A stretch of DNA of 64,000 nucleotides from Candidatus Woesearchaeota archaeon (GCA_046484055.1 JAWOBY010000048.1:4596-68595), one strand, 5' to 3'. Shown: positions 10,546-41,648, counted from the first letter of the stretch. Notes: generated by a model from the sequence alone, not told the origin. Numbers and translations are program-made.

Positions 10546-10780
10546 TTTCACCTTTTTGGACTGTACTGTGGGTTTTTCATGCGGTCCTTTTCGCAGGCAT
10601 GTTGAACCCTGCACCCCATACAAACTTTTTACCACTGATTAAGAATAACTAATATATAAAGTTTTCTGTTTTTTACCACTTAATAGTTAATATTATTTGG
10701 TGCTGTTGGCAGTCACAACCCATAATTCTGATCCCCTCTTGTTGGTGATGCAGGCTGTCAGGATACAAAAGCCAGAATAA

Positions 10781-11180
10781 TAAAAATTTGACCATTATCT
10801 TGTCAAAACCTAGCGGTTTTTCCCCTTTGTGTTCAACTGAAATCATTTAAACAGTTGAACACAACGTATAAGCAAGCCCTAACCACACCTTAAAAGGTGA
10901 GGTATTAACGGATTTGTACTTTACATGGTCAAATTTTTAGTCTTGAAAATTTCTCCCCTAAGTCGAAATTTTCAATAAGCTTTATTTGGGGTAATGCCTT
11001 TATAATGCCTCCAGAGAAGGTCAGGAGCGTCTGCAGTGGGTTGTGCTGGAGGATTAGGAAGGCCCCCCGTGGAAAGGATTTGTTGGGGGTGGTTGAGAAA
11101 ACAGAACCAATCAGGGGGGCCTTTGAAAATGAATATTCTGCCATTGCAGGACATTCGGTCTTGCATGGCATTGTTTTTTT
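10781..11180 (+). ncRNA. candidate structured non-coding RNA (family unknown)
   Basis: The region has no convincing ORF.
- A 15-bp long-range helix (10781-10795 / 10925-10939) encloses hairpins at 10827-10864 (13 bp) and 10805-10820 (6 bp).
- An 11-bp hairpin sits at 10943-10975.
- A 7-bp helix pairs 11008-11014 with 11046-11052.
- A 10-bp GC helix pairs 11059-11068 with 11114-11123.
- A terminal hairpin at 11140-11169 is followed by T7.
- Two G-U pairs are valid only on the + strand. Confidence 0.35.
11140..11180 (+). terminator. hairpin plus T7 run (terminator-like)
   Basis: GCCATTGCAGGAC attcg GTCTTGCATGGC forms 12 bp with one bulged T and one G-U pair. It is followed by attgTTTTTTT. Further T runs lie downstream (11201-11208). 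Confidence 0.45.
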
Positions 11181-26024: not shown

Positions 26025-27629
26025 TTATCCCTCTTGATCCCCTCTCAATGCCCCCACATAATCCGAGACACGCCTGAAACCTCTCTTTCTGGCGAGCTTC
26101 CTCATTACCTTGTGAGAGTTCGATCCGTACTGCGCGGCCCTCTTCTTCCTCATGGCCGTCTCCCTGTCCAGGCCTTCTCTCAGAGCGGCTTCCCTTAGTA
26201 TCATTTTCGTCTGGCCATGGCTTATCTTGTATCTTCCGGGAATCTTTAATGCGTATTTTACAAGATCTCTGTCAAGGAAAGGGAGCCTCAGTTCAAGGTT
26301 ATTATGCATGGCGACAGTATCATCCCTGTATGTGTCCCTCTCATGCATCTTCAAAAGGCCTTTCAGGCATTCCTCATTCACACTGTCAGTTCCGTTTTTC
26401 TCCCCCTTATCCTTCCCGCTCTTTTCCCCTCCTCTTTTTCCGCTTTTCTTTTCAGCTGCCATAGCATGCCTCTCATAACCGCCGAATATCTCCTCCGATC
26501 CGAGGCCTGAGAATATGGCCCTGCAGCCGTCTTTTTTCGCCTCCCTGCAGGCCAGATAGAACGGCAGGGCCACGCCGATCTTCATGACATCATCATCCTC
26601 AATGATGTCCATCACTCTCTTTAGATGCTTCTCAATATCTCTTTCTTTTATCTTTACTATCCTGAGTTTGAGTCCGAGCAGTTTTGCGGCTCTCTTTGCA
26701 TAACGCAGGTCCTCCGCTTCTTTCATCCCTCCGCTGCCGAAAGCTGCAGTGTAGCAGGTAAAGCTTCTGCCAGCACCGCGCATACCCTCTGCATATGCTT
26801 TTTCTGATTGCCTTTTCAGCAGCAGCGCAAGAAATCCTGAATCCACCCCTCCTGAGAAAAGAAGCCCGAACTTTTTTTCAGGCAGGCGTTTCATTACAGC
26901 TTCTGAAGCGAGTTCTGCAGTTTTTGTTTCTATGCGCTTCCTTGATGACCTCAAAACGGGCCTTGCGCTGAAGAATGCTCTTCTCCTGAAACTTATCTTC
27001 CCTTTGCTGACGTCATAAGTGAGCATTTTTCTCGGGTCCAGCTCTTTTATGTCCGTGAATCCCATCCTCTTCAGGGCCTTGCCTTCTGATGCGAACGCGA
27101 AAACACTCACTTGTCCTTTATTGCCTGATTCATCGTCAGTCTTATCATTAGTTTTATAATCAGTGAGATATGAACACCATAATGGCTTCACACCTATGAT
27201 ATCCCTTGCAAGGACAAGCTTTCCTCTGGTCATGTAAGCGAAGGCATACACTCCGTCAAGCAGCTCAAGGGTTTTATTGATGCGGCCGGCGCCGCTCTTC
27301 TGCAGGAGCCTGAACAGAGCTTCTGAGTCATTCCTTGCCTTCAGGCTGTGCTTCCTGTCAAGCTCTTTCCAGTTGTATATCTCGCAGTTGGATGTGAAAA
27401 TGGAGGGGCTGCTTCTATTGTCCTCCCCTTCCTTGTCATCTCTCCTGAGAGGCTGCCTGACATCGCCGTCCATGGAATGCAGGCAATGGCCCAATGCATA
27501 ATCATTGCCCTGTATGCTGCCTGTTTCATAAGAAGAGCCGTCCATCCCGCGATGCTCTATCTCTTTCATCCCTCTCCTTACCAAATGGAGGGCTTCCCCG
27601 CTTCCCGCAACGCCTATGATCCCGCACAT
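26025..27629 (-). CDS. asnB: asparagine synthase (glutamine-hydrolysing)-like amidotransferase
   Basis: MCGIIGV is the N-terminal nucleophile Cys. The PP-loop is LLFSGGVDSG. There is a K/G/E-rich insertion (EKKSGKRGGEKSGKDKGEKNG). Confidence 0.8.
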   Translation of the reverse strand: MCGIIGVAGSGEALHLVRRGMKEIEHRGMDGSSYETGSIQGNDYALGHCLHSMDGDVRQPLRRDDKEGEDNRSSPSIFTSNCEIYNWKELDRKHSLKARNDSEALFRLLQKSGAGRINKTLELLDGVYAFAYMTRGKLVLARDIIGVKPLWCSYLTDYKTNDKTDDESGNKGQVSVFAFASEGKALKRMGFTDIKELDPRKMLTYDVSKGKISFRRRAFFSARPVLRSSRKRIETKTAELASEAVMKRLPEKKFGLLFSGGVDSGFLALLLKRQSEKAYAEGMRGAGRSFTCYTAAFGSGGMKEAEDLRYAKRAAKLLGLKLRIVKIKERDIEKHLKRVMDIIEDDDVMKIGVALPFYLACREAKKDGCRAIFSGLGSEEIFGGYERHAMAAEKKSGKRGGEKSGKDKGEKNGTDSVNEECLKGLLKMHERDTYRDDTVAMHNNLELRLPFLDRDLVKYALKIPGRYKISHGQTKMILREAALREGLDRETAMRKKRAAQYGSNSHKVMRKLARKRGFRRVSDYVGALRGDQEG

Positions 27630-36947: not shown

Positions 36948-38099
36948 ATGGTAAAGAGGATGAAGAGCATGAAAAAAGAGGCCGGGAAGCGTAAACAAAA
37001 GCATGATCAGAAGGACTGCAGGCAGGACCATCATTTCATGGGCCTTGCTCTTGAACTCGCAGCAAAAGGCAAAGGCAGGACATCACCCAATCCCTCTGTG
37101 GGTGCTGTCATAGTAAGGGACGGAGAGGTGGTAGGCAAGGGCTACCACAAGAAAGCCGGCAAAGCCCATGCCGAAATAAGCGCGATAAGATCTGTCAAGG
37201 ACAAAAGGCTTCTGAAAGGATCCACATTATACATAACCATGGAGCCCTGCAGCCATTACGGCAGGACAGGGCCCTGCACTGATGCTGCAATAAAAGCCGG
37301 CATCTCAAGAGTGGTCGCGGCGATGATAGACCCCAATCCTATATCAAATGGAAGGGGATTCCAGCTGCTCAGGAATGCTGGGATTAAAGTCAGGTCAGGG
37401 GTGAGGGAGGATGAAGCGAGAAGGCTGAATGAGGCATACATCAGTTTCATAACCACAAAAAAACCTTTTGTTCTGCTCAAGGCCGCCATGAGCATGGACG
37501 GCAAGATAGCCACAAGGACAGGCAGCTCTAAATGGATAAGCTCAAAGGAGAGCAGAAGATATGCCCATAAGCTGAGGAATGATGCTGATGCTGTGATGGT
37601 GGGAATAAACACAGCGCTCCATGACAATCCCAGGCTCACATGCAGGATAAGAGGGGGCAAGGACCCGCTCAGACTGATACTCGACAGCAGGCTCAGGATA
37701 CCCCTTGACTCCAACATACTCTCCGACGGCAACGCGATGATGGCCACCACAAACCAGTGCGACAAGGAAAAGAAAAAGAAGCTTGAGGAGATGGGCATAG
37801 GAGTGATTGTGGTGAACAAGAGGGGGAAGGTGAGGCTGAAGAAGCTCATGAAAGAGCTCAGCGTAAGGGGGATAATCAATGTGATGATCGAAGGGGGTTC
37901 GGAAGTGGCTGCCTCGGCTGTGAAAGAGGGCATAGTGGATAAAGTTGTGTATTTTGTCGCTCCGAAGATAATAGGGGGCAGCAGGGCAAAGACCCCCATA
38001 GGGGGAAGGGGTGCTGGCGCGATGGAGGAGGTTCTCACCCTGAGGGATGTAGAGCTGAGGAAAACAGGTTGTGATGTGATAATTGAGGGATACCTATGA
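36948..38099 (+). CDS. ribD: bifunctional pyrimidine deaminase / uracil reductase
   Basis: HFMGLALELAAKGKGRTSPNPSVGAVIV, HAEI and TMEPCSHYGRTGPC form the deaminase zinc site. The C-terminus is a reductase domain. The N-terminal K-rich extension makes the start uncertain. Confidence 0.85.
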   Translation: MVKRMKSMKKEAGKRKQKHDQKDCRQDHHFMGLALELAAKGKGRTSPNPSVGAVIVRDGEVVGKGYHKKAGKAHAEISAIRSVKDKRLLKGSTLYITMEPCSHYGRTGPCTDAAIKAGISRVVAAMIDPNPISNGRGFQLLRNAGIKVRSGVREDEARRLNEAYISFITTKKPFVLLKAAMSMDGKIATRTGSSKWISSKESRRYAHKLRNDADAVMVGINTALHDNPRLTCRIRGGKDPLRLILDSRLRIPLDSNILSDGNAMMATTNQCDKEKKKKLEEMGIGVIVVNKRGKVRLKKLMKELSVRGIINVMIEGGSEVAASAVKEGIVDKVVYFVAPKIIGGSRAKTPIGGRGAGAMEEVLTLRDVELRKTGCDVIIEGYL

Positions 38100-38686
38100 A
38101 GGGACTGCCTGTCAATATAGAGAGAGGAGAAGGAGTGAGATTCCCTTCAGAGCACGGCGAATTCACCCTCATCCCCTACATTGAGAGGCTCAGCGAAAGA
38201 TGCCACCTCGCGCTTGTCATGGGACAGCAGGTAGACAATGCTTTAGTCAGGATACACTCTGAATGCCTGACAGGAGATACGCTATGCTCTTCAAGGTGCG
38301 ACTGCGGCAGCCAGTTGAGAAAGGCAATGGAGATGGTAGGCAAGGAGGGTTCAGGAGTCATAATATATCTGAGGCAGGAGGGAAGGGGCATCGGACTGTG
38401 GAACAAGCTCAAGGCATACGCGCTGCAGGACCGCGGTTTGGATACTGTGGAGGCCAACCACCAGCTGGGCTTCAGGGATGATGAGAGAAGTTATGAGATA
38501 GCAGTTCATATACTGAAGGACCTCGGCCTGAAAAGGATAAGGTTATTGACGAACAATCCTGACAAGATAAAGGGCCTTAACGGAAGCATTGAGGTTGCTG
38601 AGAGGATACCCCTTACAGTAAGGCCGAACAGGCACAATGAGGCCTATCTCAGGGCAAAGAAAGAGAGGATGGGGCATGAGGTTTAG
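38096..38686 (+). CDS. ribA: GTP cyclohydrolase II
   Basis: VRIHSECLTGDTLCSSRCDCGSQL, YLRQEGRGIGLWNKLKAY and DTVEAN are present. The start overlaps the ribD stop (ATGA). Confidence 0.85.
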   Translation: MKGLPVNIERGEGVRFPSEHGEFTLIPYIERLSERCHLALVMGQQVDNALVRIHSECLTGDTLCSSRCDCGSQLRKAMEMVGKEGSGVIIYLRQEGRGIGLWNKLKAYALQDRGLDTVEANHQLGFRDDERSYEIAVHILKDLGLKRIRLLTNNPDKIKGLNGSIEVAERIPLTVRPNRHNEAYLRAKKERMGHEV

Positions 38687-38721
38687 GAATATTTAAAAAC
38701 GATAATGCTGTTCTTCTGATT

Positions 38722-39135
38722 ATGGGAATCACTCCAAAAGTAATAGCTGTTTTCGGCACCTTCGACACAATCCACAAGGGCCATCTTCATTTCTTCAGGC
38801 AGGCCAGGGATGCAGCAGGTCAGGATTCAAGACTGGTTGTTGTCATCGCCCGCGATTCCAATGTTGAGAAAGAGAAAGGAAAGGCCCCAAAACACAATGA
38901 AAAGGAAAGACTGGCCAAGGTGAAAGAGCTTGACATTGTTGATGACGCAGTTCTGGGCTCTCAGGTTATTGACTTCAGCATAATAGATGAGATAAGGCCT
39001 GACATCATAGCGCTGGGGTATGATCAGAAGAAGCCCGAGGGATTTGATGCTCATATAAAAGACAAGGATGTAGAGGTTGTAAGGCTGAAGCCTCACATGC
39101 CTGAGGAGTTCAAGAGTTCTAAGATGAAAAAGTAG
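38722..39135 (+). CDS. ribL: cytidylyltransferase-fold nucleotidyltransferase, probably archaeal FAD synthetase
   Basis: VFGTFDTIHKGHLHFF (the GxFDxxHxGH motif). About 137 aa. It is the last gene of the riboflavin operon. Confidence 0.65.
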   Translation: MGITPKVIAVFGTFDTIHKGHLHFFRQARDAAGQDSRLVVVIARDSNVEKEKGKAPKHNEKERLAKVKELDIVDDAVLGSQVIDFSIIDEIRPDIIALGYDQKKPEGFDAHIKDKDVEVVRLKPHMPEEFKSSKMKK

Positions 39136-39150
39136 GTATATTATTTCCAC

Positions 39151-39239
39151 AAAGCCGAAAACTGAAACATTTATGTAGCGAAAATCAGGGATTTTCTGGG
39201 TTTGTTAGACAAGCTAACAAACTTTCAGATGAAGGCTTT
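39151..39239. other. structured module M1
   Basis: The outer helix pairs AAAGCC 39151-56 with GGCTTT 39234-39, and CTGAAA 39162-67 with TTTCAG 39223-28. It encloses hairpin GAAAATC-agg-GATTTTC (39180-96) and hairpin TTTGTTAG-acaag-CTAACAAA (39201-21). Confidence 0.5.
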
Positions 39240-39249
39240 TGGAAAGCTT

Positions 39250-39427
39250 AAAAATCCGCTGTCAATACAATCGCCGTCAAACTGAAACAACAGAAAATAT
39301 TTCATATTTTCTTAGTTCCAAAACCTTCGGTTTTGAAACCTCATAAAAATGCAAAGCATTTTTAGGACGCCAAAAATCTATGATTTTTGAGCGTTTAGGT
39401 TTCAGTCAGGCGATTGTGCGGATTTTT
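39250..39427. other. structured module M2
   Basis: The composite outer helix has three segments:
- 10 bp: 39250-59 / 39418-27.
- 9 bp: 39267-75 / 39409-17.
- 8 bp: 39281-88 / 39399-406.
It encloses four perfect hairpins with 3-nt loops:
- 39292-312 (9 bp).
- 39319-35 (7 bp).
- 39345-63 (8 bp).
- 39371-89 (8 bp). Confidence 0.55.
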
Positions 39428-39449
39428 TTGATTTTATCTCTCTTATTCA

Positions 39450-39571
39450 GGCAGCAACAACAATGGATTCATACACGGTCAAAGCCTTCGGCTTTGCCCT
39501 ATTCGTAAAGGAAAAAACCACACTGCGTATGGTTTTTTCCTCTACACTCAGTATTCATCCTTGTTGCTGCC
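39450..39571. other. structured module M3
   Basis: The outer helix is 11 bp (39450-60 / 39561-71), then 4+4 bp (39465-74 / 39551-60). It encloses CAAAGCC-ttc-GGCTTTG (39480-96) and an 11-bp hairpin GGAAAAAACCA / TGGTTTTTTCC (39510-40). Confidence 0.5.
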
Positions 39572-39576
39572 AACGG

Positions 39577-39730
39577 GGCGGTGATGATGGCGCTGGCGAG
39601 GCGGGGGATGGTTGCCGAGCGTAGTGAGCGCAACTAAGGAAATCTCTGATTTCCTGTTCCCCCCTACGGGGTGGCGAGTAGGGCTCCGAACATAGTGAGG
39701 AGACCGTCAGCCGCCATAATCATCACCGCC
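39577..39730. other. structured GC-rich module M4
   Basis: The outer helix is 12 bp (39577-88 / 39719-30), then 4 bp (39589-92 / 39712-15), then 5 bp including one G-U (39593-97 / 39706-10). Inside are hairpin AGGAAATC-tct-GATTTCCT (39637-55) and two paralogous hairpins (39611-34 and 39682-705) with 11-nt loops GAGCGTAGTGA and GAACATAGTGA. Confidence 0.5.
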
Positions 39731-39800
39731 AAAAACATTAAGAAATAATTACAGACCAATGTTGTTGCTGCCTGCAAAAGACTATTAGAGAACTACTTAT

Positions 39801-41648
39801 TCAATAAAGTTCATTCACCATCTCAATATACATGGCATTTGACCACGCCTGCATGAGGCATCCCTTGCTCTGCATCTCACTGCTGGAGCTTATCTCAGCA
39901 TGATGGCCTACCGCCCCTCCGAAAAGTATCTCTTGAGTGCTGGCCCTTAGTATCCTGTCTATCTCTTCCCTGAACTTCCTCTTGTTGAGCCTGTGCATGC
40001 ATATCGCTGCGAGGTTGTTGAGCCAGTACCATGAATCACCGCGATGATAACTCCGGTCATTCTCTCCAGTGTGCGCACCGAAAAAGAGCGGATTCTCCTT
40101 GTCTATTGTTGATATTCCCCCCCACTCATTCCAGAGCTTCGGAAGGACTGTCCTGAAGCATTTTATCCACTGCTGTTTCGTCAGCAGTTCGGGATAGACA
40201 TAGTATGCGATGAACACATTTGGCCTTATTGTATCGTCATTCGCTCCGTCCTTGAGGTATTTTCCGTTCCAGAATGTCTCCCTGACTTTCTTCATGAGGT
40301 CATTCTCGAGATGCACTGCCATGTTATGGCCTATATCATCATTGAGTGTCCTGCAAAGGAGTTTCATGAGCCGGTACATGCAGAGCCTCAGTGCCTGTAT
40401 CTCGATCCTTATCCCCTCCCTGTCATCATCCTTGTAGGCGGTGTCCATCCAGGTCTCCAGCCTGCCGTTCACCGCGAAATCCTGCGCGGTGTGGTTGTTC
40501 CTCAGCTCATAGACCGTGTCCTCCACTTTCTTCTTCATGAACTCCAGATCCTCCTCAGAGAGGTATTCTGTTATCAGCTCTTTCCTGTAGAGCTCCTCAA
40601 AGAAGTCGTAGCATCGCTTCATCAGCCAGCCTATGGCATCAGCAGAGTCGAGATCAGAGCCTGGATATCTGTTGGGTATCCTTCCGTCATCCCTTATCTG
40701 TCTCAGCTGCCTGAAAAGTATCTCTTTCACTAAGTCATATTTCTCCTGGATCATCAGCGCTTTCAGGCTCACAGCCTCATCCCTTGTCCAGTACTGGAAG
40801 AACCACCACAGGCCTGCGTAGATCCCTTTCTTGTCCCTTATGGTGCTGACCAGATGGTCCAGTGATGAGCAGGCGGCCCTGTATGCCATGGTCGCCTTCG
40901 GGTCGTCGAACCCCCTGTTGAACTTCACATATGCCTGCTGCTTCTCCTTGACCTTCTTCAGGTCCTTTATCAGCTTATCGTTCTCTTTTATCGCTTTCTG
41001 CTTGTTCTTTGAGAATGATATGACCATGCGCCTGGCCCTTATCACTATTGCATTGTACACATGCCTCTCCCATGGCCAGGAGCCTCGTTCCTTGTCAAAA
41101 GGATATTGTACAGGAGAGAACTCATCTTTCTTACTGCACTCCTTGCCGTTGTCTATGACCACATAGACTATGTATTCCTTCTTCCCGTGGCTCTGGTCCT
41201 CCTGCTTGTCTGTCTTCTTGGTGAACTCAACTATTATCTTTCCTTTCTCGTTGTAGATCCTGTAATACCTGCCGAACTGCCTGCTGTCATACGCCTTCCT
41301 GACATCAAGGTCTATCTGTATATCAGCCTCCCTGCTCAGCTGATAGCCGATGGAGTTATGCATCAGCGGCATGAAAAGCGTTTCTTTCAGGCCGTCATCG
41401 CGCTCCCTCTCGATACAATAGAACCTGTTGATCATTCTCTTAACATCCCCTGAACTGAGAGGTGTTATGTTCTCCACCACCTTGAACATCTCGAAGTTGT
41501 CATTGAAGAATGCGCCCTGGTATCTTGAGGCAGGGAAATCGCTCAGGGAGAAGTAGCCGCCTATCTTGTTGGTCAGGATGAAGCTGGGGTTATGAGCCTT
41601 TCCTTCCACTTTTGACTTATCAATCTCATGGATAACATCAGTCATCAA
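39801..41648 (-). CDS. glycogen debranching enzyme (amylo-alpha-1,6-glucosidase, archaeal GDE type)
   Basis: GIYAGLWWFFQYWTRDEAVSLKAL. The C-terminal (alpha/alpha)6-barrel-like region has SYHRGDSWYWLNN and the CLMQAWS motif. Confidence 0.8.
   Translation of the reverse strand: MMTDVIHEIDKSKVEGKAHNPSFILTNKIGGYFSLSDFPASRYQGAFFNDNFEMFKVVENITPLSSGDVKRMINRFYCIERERDDGLKETLFMPLMHNSIGYQLSREADIQIDLDVRKAYDSRQFGRYYRIYNEKGKIIVEFTKKTDKQEDQSHGKKEYIVYVVIDNGKECSKKDEFSPVQYPFDKERGSWPWERHVYNAIVIRARRMVISFSKNKQKAIKENDKLIKDLKKVKEKQQAYVKFNRGFDDPKATMAYRAACSSLDHLVSTIRDKKGIYAGLWWFFQYWTRDEAVSLKALMIQEKYDLVKEILFRQLRQIRDDGRIPNRYPGSDLDSADAIGWLMKRCYDFFEELYRKELITEYLSEEDLEFMKKKVEDTVYELRNNHTAQDFAVNGRLETWMDTAYKDDDREGIRIEIQALRLCMYRLMKLLCRTLNDDIGHNMAVHLENDLMKKVRETFWNGKYLKDGANDDTIRPNVFIAYYVYPELLTKQQWIKCFRTVLPKLWNEWGGISTIDKENPLFFGAHTGENDRSYHRGDSWYWLNNLAAICMHRLNKRKFREEIDRILRASTQEILFGGAVGHHAEISSSSEMQSKGCLMQAWSNAMYIEMVNELY

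Follow-up and report, generated by a model that had tools for sequence, protein, structure and literature searches.

Rickettsia palindromic elements (RPEs) are short, hairpin-forming selfish repeats that spread in small genomes, and the insertion sequences IS1397 and ISKpn1 target REP hairpins. Repetitive extragenic palindromes of the REP, BIME and REPIN types occur in bacteria together with a single-copy RAYT transposase (PMC3116915, PMC6006769), and ISPpu9 inserts into REPs (PMC8450116). Palindrome-associated transposable elements (PATEs) are gene-less derivatives of IS200/IS605 found in Haloquadratum walsbyi (PMC3119063). In a survey from 2018, the Y1 proteins seen in Archaea were all of the classical IS200 type, and both the RAYT classes and the association with REPs were confined to Bacteria (PMC6006769). 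In our literature search, no report of repeats of this kind came up for DPANN archaea or Woesearchaeota. Here we describe a highly structured intergenic module, M2, in a member of the Woesearchaeota, which is probably a selfish repeat acting at the DNA level, that is a PATE- or REPIN-like non-autonomous element carrying nested insertions, and not a dedicated RNA gene.

M2 lies at positions 39250-39427 of the window, a 64,000-nt stretch of a Candidatus Woesearchaeota archaeon genome (GCA_046484055.1 JAWOBY010000048.1:4596-68595). It occupies part of a 665-nt spacer between a FAD-synthetase-like gene (ribL, 38722-39135, + strand) and a convergent GDE_C glucosidase gene (39801-41648, - strand). 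The riboflavin/FAD cluster directly upstream (36948-39135), comprising a RibD fusion, GTP cyclohydrolase II and an archaeal-type FAD synthetase, is a notable biosynthetic capacity for a DPANN genome. A sequence-only reading of the window had drawn M2 as a composite outer helix closing a junction of four hairpins, and on checking against the sequence of 38400-40300 all helices, bulges, hairpins and the T7 run were found where it had placed them. The outer helix consists of three segments, in which AAAAATCCGC (39250-59) pairs with GCGGATTTTT (39418-27), ACAATCGCC (39267-75) with GGCGATTGT (39409-17) and ACTGAAAC (39281-88) with GTTTCAGT (39399-406). Two bulges interrupt its 5′ strand, TGTCAAT (39260-66) and GTCAA (39276-80), and it encloses four perfect hairpins with 3-nt loops (39292-312, 39319-335, 39345-363 and 39371-389). 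All of the stems listed are Watson-Crick pairs, and the module terminates with an oligo-T run as had been noted (T7, 39423-29).

The minimum free energy structure predicted by RNAfold for 39240-39440 is exactly the drawn architecture, with a folding energy of -69.6 kcal/mol and a z-score of -8.28 relative to 200 dinucleotide shuffles (-35.5 +/- 4.1 kcal/mol), none of which folded as well (0/200). The structure of M2 is far beyond chance because the sequence is assembled from palindromic repeat modules. The minus strand folds slightly better than the plus strand (-71.7 kcal/mol, z -9.51), and the plus strand reaches a z-score of -10.06 with DNA parameters; as both strands and the single-stranded DNA fold equally well, no one RNA strand is marked as special. 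The entire 665-nt spacer is hyper-structured on both strands. At gathering thresholds no Rfam 15 family matched anywhere in the window, and a search of 39000-39900 at E values up to 10 returned only chance-level matches (E of at least 1.2). An identity as tRNA or tmRNA was rejected, an ARAGORN scan of the window having detected none.

Comparison of the orthologous site in related genomes places the spacer among lineage-specific sequences. The convergent ribL/GDE pair of the relative G001 is separated by 13 nt, versus 665 nt here, and in G009 the spacer measures 325 nt and is of unrelated sequence. Judged from this comparison, the M2 spacer is not ancestral at the ribL/GDE locus. Presence of the element at the orthologous locus and strand-specific structure would be expected of an ncRNA gene, and neither was found. 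G001 (CAYNHV01 contigs, L110/L112) belongs to the same family grouping as the window genome and carries the A element described below; the title of its public record, 'uncultured Methanosarcinales archaeon', is probably a mislabel by the submitter.

The interpretation of M2 as a purpose-built multi-helix RNA junction was not supported. The composite helix is an independent shell of ~80 nt that exists without the four hairpins, and the hairpins themselves form two separable cassettes of 51-53 nt which are found in other shells whose stems differ, in other element types and in either orientation. The missing spacer at the orthologous site of one relative, the equal foldability of the two strands and the lack of any Rfam match likewise stand against this interpretation.

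M2 is part of a repeat unit of ~292 nt, the A element (39141..39432, + strand), with constant ends and varying flanks. Its left end is TTATTTCCAC (39141) and its right end ...GCGGATTTTTTTGAT (39432), also given as ...TTTTTTTGAT. Elsewhere in the genome the left end adjoins five different left flanks (contigs C55, C65, C34, C59 and C1) and the right end five different right flanks (C55, C19, C34, C84 and C56), and A elements with identical ends are also present in the relatives G011 and G001. The constant left and right ends next to differing flanks indicate that M2 travels together with M1, the 5′ module of the unit (39147..39243, + strand), a bulged hairpin of the form CAAAGCC-GAAAA-CTGAAAC ... 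TTTCAG-ATGAA-GGCTTTG. M1 had been suggested to repeat the plan of M2, and it does so with an outer CAAAGCC/GGCTTTG helix, an inner CTGAAA/TTTCAG helix and two hairpins. The architecture is common to the two, which are modules of one ~292-nt unit and are each built on a CTGAAAC/GTTTCAG apical hairpin. The cargo of M1 is a 48-nt double hairpin at its apex (39175-39222, + strand), and the empty form, CTGAAAC-ATTTAT-GTTTCAG, occurs in G011 (L045, L046).

We searched M1, M2 and the neighbouring module M3 separately by blastn within the genome and then read the copies. The whole spacer used as a query gave 34 matches in the 1.44-Mb, 88-contig assembly. Full copies of M2 with 98.9-99.3 % identity were identified on C65/C19 and on C34; those on C65 and C19 probably derive from a single locus divided by contig ends, while in the C34 copy M2 and the first 29 nt of M1 are joined at a word common to both, AAACTGAAAC. 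Partial modules were present at more than 20 further places, many of them at contig ends, which indicates that the repeats break the assembly. Near-identical cargo-bearing copies lie in different flanks, showing that the composite went on being copied after nesting. A paralogous B element, starting with TTATTTGAAAA and ending in GGCGAGTTTTTGTTAT (right end also given as ...GTTTTTGTTAT), follows the same bipartite plan and has at least 10 copies.

All M2-type copies examined in the genome are intergenic and often lie 6-90 nt from the end of a gene. Based on crude ORF-based gene calls, 11 of the 14 elements lying between co-directional genes are antisense to those genes, an orientation bias that is suggestive only. 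By inspection, neither A nor B elements have terminal inverted repeats or a direct repeat common to their left and right flanks. A MITE with terminal inverted repeats and TA duplication was rejected, the ends not being inverted copies of each other, as was an IS110 bridge RNA or other recombinase-linked RNA, given that no recombinase is adjacent and the repeat is dispersed. No constant target tetranucleotide could be made out from the flanks and no exact empty site was recovered, the orthologous site of G001 included; TTAT begins all copies and may belong to either the target or the element. The C34 hybrid and deletions on C2 and C4 were clearly made by recombination between similar hairpins. 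The genomes compared are fragmented metagenome assemblies, so that assembly may affect copy numbers, which remain uncertain at contig ends, and some junctions such as that of the C34 hybrid. An assembly artefact was rejected for the copy described here, which has unique genes on either side in the middle part of a contig of 71 kb and whose modules recur in independent assemblies.

Empty and filled states of the shell allow the history of M2 to be read. The shell has the layout A5 - stem 1 - TGTCAA(T) - stem 2 - GTCAAA - stem 3 - CTTTAG - stem 3′ - TCA - stem 2′ - stem 1′ - T5-7 - GAT. In shell A, the one underlying M2, the 5′ arm (39250..39288, + strand) comprises A5, stem 1 (TCCGC), the bulge TGTCAAT, stem 2 ACAATCGCC, the bulge GTCAA(A) and CTGAAAC. 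The loop and 3′ arm (39340..39432, + strand) start with a loop divided into C (39340) and TTTAG (39394-98), followed by GTTTCAG(T), CA, GGCGATTGT, GCGGATTTTT, the T7 run (39423-29) and a terminal GAT. Shell A is empty at two places in the same genome (C84:27129-27208 and C56:24111-24190), where the apex reads CTGAAAC-CTTTAG-GTTTCAG, and at three in G011 (Candidatus Woesearchaeota archaeon Bin_534). Three copies in G001 (L048-L050) hold the cassette H12 only, and the M2 copy here holds both H12 and a second cassette, H34, and thus all four hairpins. Pairs of empty and filled shells were also found for shell B (apex stem CTCCGCC) and for C-type shells, and the position of the insert is constant in all three, between the apical 5′ arm and the (C)TTTAG loop.

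Cassette H12 (39289..39339, + strand) is 51 nt in length, has the structure AAC-AG-hairpin 1-TAGTTC-hairpin 2-AAAC and lies at the boundary of 5′ arm and loop in the shell apex. It recurs in C-type shells of the same genome (C4:12406, C35:24830 and C16:11767), is missing from the empty shells and in G011 is also found within another element type, at GGCAGC^AACAAC (L053-L055). Cassette H34 (39341..39393, + strand; 53 nt) consists of hairpins 3 and 4, ends in GAGCG and lies between H12 and TTTAG. We identified 31 nhmmer matches to H34 at E < 1 in the genome, in at least four contexts, one of which is the linker of the A element, where it lies in reverse orientation. Copies of H34 with 77-90 % identity are present in other families of the order and include compensatory variants, for example ACGC..GCGT to ACCC..GGGT. 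Both cassettes are without a CTTTAG loop. Double hairpins resembling H34 appear within or beside protein-coding sequence at two loci of other genomes (L020, G025:C5 ~27550-27596; L019, G028:C31).

The rest of the spacer, outside M2, is taken up by M3 (39441..39781, strand unassigned), a neighbouring element of nested palindromes, with further palindromes inside inverted arms of 26 nt. Its outer arms begin GGCAGCAACAACAATGG..., and units related to it form tandem arrays in G011 with H12-like cassettes inserted at the GGCAGC^AACAAC site mentioned above. Matches of 96-100 % identity to a 27-28 nt piece of M3 (39632-39659) were present on contigs C25, C43 (twice) and C71 of the same genome.

Thirteen shells of families A-D from three genomes align to one structure, with compensatory changes at 16 of its 22 pairs. 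Shells B, C and D are paralogous to shell A, keeping the bulges and the loop and differing in their stems. A covariance model built from the 13 aligned shells identified shells in 15 of the family's 17 genomes and, in a sample of 301 genomes across the order, in 72. Examples fetched from these searches have A5, TGTCAA, G-N-A-A/T-A, CTTTAG and T5-(G/A)T(T/G)AT as constant parts around stems that are wholly different. Three genomes (G064, G074 and G255) each carry at least 13 equal-scoring copies, a signature of recent amplification and not of a conserved RNA gene. The window itself contains a second element of this kind, a C-type shell (10777..10939, - strand) scoring 47.3 bits (E = 2e-7) with the covariance model R1; it has A5...T5-ATTAT ends, the apex CCTCACC-TTTTAA-GGTGTGG and an insertion of ~78 nt on its 3′ side.

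Conservation of the unpaired motifs while the stems covary across the order, together with the extreme stability of the fold, its place just behind a gene, its termination in T7 and the antisense orientation of 11 of 14 elements, could also be accounted for if the shell family were a functional structured ncRNA or 3′-UTR element whose bulges (TGTCAAT, GTCAAA) and CTTTAG loop are read by a host protein. We regard this as highly improbable. The element is not kept at the orthologous locus, occurs as numerous identical copies in many genomes, and its modules are found in both orientations and in nested states. The two strands fold equally well through stems which, as listed, are all Watson-Crick, Rfam has no match, and the same hairpin makes up the ends of a transposase gene.

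This gene is the only Y1 (PF01797) gene of the genome (C25:9062-9493). Its product of 143 aa passes the NCBIfam IS200/IS605 model NF033573 (89.5 bits, cut-off 55) and fails the RAYT model NF047646 (51 bits, cut-off 80). No TnpB domain was found in the genome, and a TnpB/guide-RNA scaffold was rejected as the identity of M2 on this ground. The stop codon of the Y1 gene overlaps a hairpin, GGAAACTGAAAC-CTTTAG-GTTTCAG, that is identical over 23/23 nt to the uninterrupted apex of shell A (string AAACTGAAACCTTTAGGTTTCAG). Across the order, 58 of the 301 genomes have homologues of Y1, usually one each. Most of 30 loci compared order-wide have the same kinds of ends. At the right end of the insertion sequence, a variable 7-bp stem and its complement enclose the loop, which is CTTTAG or close to it, and are followed by AGGAGGTCAT; conservation ends 10 nt past the hairpin, the geometry also of the IS608 right end. 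The hairpin at the left end is bulged, has two tiers and resembles a shell (GCAAGG-ATACT-stem-(C)TTTAG-stem′-AGAGGAATTGCCTTGC).

The IS200-type element of the genome (C25:8900-9520, L021/L059) also has a ribosome binding site, GGAGG, in the hairpin loop TTCGCTGC-GCGGAGG-CAGCGAA just before the ATG, and a conserved TTAGCGTGAGCT box upstream; both features recur at ~25 homologous loci order-wide. In the protein, the HUH motif reads DHLH and the tyrosine motif YIRNQEHH, unlike the signature reported for the archaeal subclass 1.1 (PMC6006769).

Shell apices match the right-end hairpin of the insertion sequence present in the same genome, at 20/20 positions in the window genome and in G001, 19/20 in G281 and 17/20 in G145. 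Rare loop variants are common to the insertion sequence hairpin and the shell, TTTCAA/TTTTAA in G281 and CTTCAG in G262, and when six genomes, a small and partly related sample, were permuted in all 720 ways, the within-genome pairing of hairpin and apex scored highest. Shells and the Y1 subfamily overlap in 19 of the 301 genomes versus 13.9 expected (odds ratio ~1.75), a weak association that led us to reject strict dependence of the shells on Y1. The gene is present once each in the window genome, G001 and G017 and missing from many shell-bearing genomes; G036, which is 99 % complete, has 13 shells and no detectable Y1 gene, and none was detected in G011, which carries near-identical A elements. 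The right end lies ~27-30 nt from the foot of the apex in shells, versus 10 nt in the insertion sequence.

The abundance of shells in genomes without a Y1 gene, G011 with its near-identical A elements among them, speaks for a second explanation, in which the repeats are mobile or amplified through something other than the resident IS200-type Y1. Another enzyme, recombination or gene conversion between palindromes, or template switching at hairpins could be responsible, and the likeness to the insertion sequence ends would then reflect sequence exchange or the borrowing of host hairpins by the insertion sequence. The C34 hybrid and the C2/C4 deletions, which plainly arose from recombination between similar hairpins, fit this explanation, as do H12 and H34 in having no CTTTAG hairpin. 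Nevertheless we think it unlikely, because right-end hairpins and shell apices of the same genome match significantly, down to the rare loops in G281 and G262, and because the ends are asymmetric and show neither inverted repeats nor target duplications, like those of IS200/IS605 derivatives.

Under the preferred reading, in which M2 is a non-autonomous repeat of the PATE or REPIN kind, the sequence likeness suggests that M1+M2 may be mobilised by the resident Y1 transposase. The unit of ~292 nt consists of two modules, each one long bulged hairpin or shell, with M2 as the 3′ module. The shell apex, a 7-bp stem with a CTTTAG loop and a preceding bulge of the G-N-A-A/T-A type, has the form of the subterminal hairpins of an IS200-type insertion sequence resident in Woesearchaeales. 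Two generations of double-hairpin mini-elements of ~52 nt, first H12 and then H34, appear to have inserted into this apex exactly between 5′ arm and loop, converting a simple hairpin into the five-way junction as drawn. The apical stem could still close since the cargo hairpins fold on themselves. The hairpins would extrude on single-stranded DNA, for example the lagging-strand template, where the Y1 HUH transposase would bind the CTTTAG-loop hairpin, cut at ends of the T-N-A-T type and move the unit by peel-and-paste in the manner of IS608, PATEs or REPINs. Catalysis by the resident Y1, the single-stranded pathway and the target are all parts of this model that we infer.

More tentatively, the shells might represent a Woesearchaeales counterpart of the REPIN-RAYT system. 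Long-lived shells of ~80 nt would be served in trans by mostly single-copy IS200-type Y1 proteins whose end hairpins covary with them, the apex would act as a specific landing pad for a second class of mini-elements of ~52 nt that stack within each other, multi-way junctions like M2 growing by repeated insertion at the loop edge, and the products may serve the host for termination in both directions. This last use can also be put forward as an explanation in itself, namely that, between convergent genes, the element has been recruited to stop transcription in both directions and to stabilise 3′ ends, a role which would be secondary to, and compatible with, a mobile origin. Oligo-T is a termination signal for the archaeal RNA polymerase, and in bacteria REPs stabilise the mRNA that lies upstream of them. 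The shell is bordered by A5 and T7 runs such that each strand reads a hairpin followed by oligo-U, and the copies examined are all intergenic and often close to a gene end (6-90 nt). However, relatives manage with a spacer of 13 nt, transcription would already stop within the structure at the internal T5 runs (39359-63 and 39383-87), and we consider such co-option quite unlikely. If M2 is a mobile repeat, effects at the RNA level, such as termination by hairpin and T-run or protection of the ribL 3′ end, would be a by-product.

Very low folding z-scores in the intergenic DNA of DPANN archaea can reflect stacked palindromic mobile modules and not RNA genes, which matters for the discovery of ncRNAs in these genomes. 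It appears that ultra-small genomes of archaea put up with, and perhaps make use of, a considerable number of hairpin repeats, which also fragment metagenome assemblies. The IS200-type Y1 transposase and the CTTTAG-loop hairpin provide a candidate mobiliser and recognition motif that are testable, and site-specific insertion at the 5′ edge of the hairpin loop in several shells offers a small, defined substrate for structure-directed DNA integration.

Set against known systems, the elements resemble RPEs and other small palindromic repeats in being short, hairpin-forming and selfish and in residing in small genomes; they differ from RPEs in that the M2-type copies examined in the genome are all intergenic and in having unrelated sequences. 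As with the REP-targeting insertion sequences IS1397/ISKpn1 and ISPpu9, nesting arises from a mobile element at a fixed site within a palindromic repeat, although the guests here are gene-less double hairpins of 51-53 nt, not complete insertion sequences, and they stack, H34 behind H12. A-type elements share with PATEs and the IS200/IS605 group (IS608, ISDra2) a short, gene-less and multi-copy nature, asymmetric ends that by inspection have no terminal inverted repeats or target duplications, and hairpins matching those found at the ends of a resident Y1 (HUH) gene. In contrast to that group, their hairpins are extended to three-tier shells of ~80 nt whose bulges are conserved, their build is bipartite and modular with the transposase-type hairpin itself interrupted by nested mini-elements, there is no TnpB/guide-RNA partner, and the host is a DPANN archaeon. 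Similarities to the REP/REPIN-RAYT systems include extragenic palindromes in tens of copies, mosaics of several hairpin types, one Y1 gene per genome whose flanking hairpin matches the dispersed repeats, and covarying stems with long persistence across a lineage. The protein here, however, scores as IS200 TnpA and not as RAYT, many repeat-bearing genomes are without the Y1 gene, and no 5′ GTAG/CGTC tag is present, conservation being seen in the CTTTAG loop and in two bulges, G-N-A-A/T-A and TGTCAA. New here are the nesting history of M2, followed across three genomes, and the matching of shell apices to the end hairpins of a specific IS200-type family.
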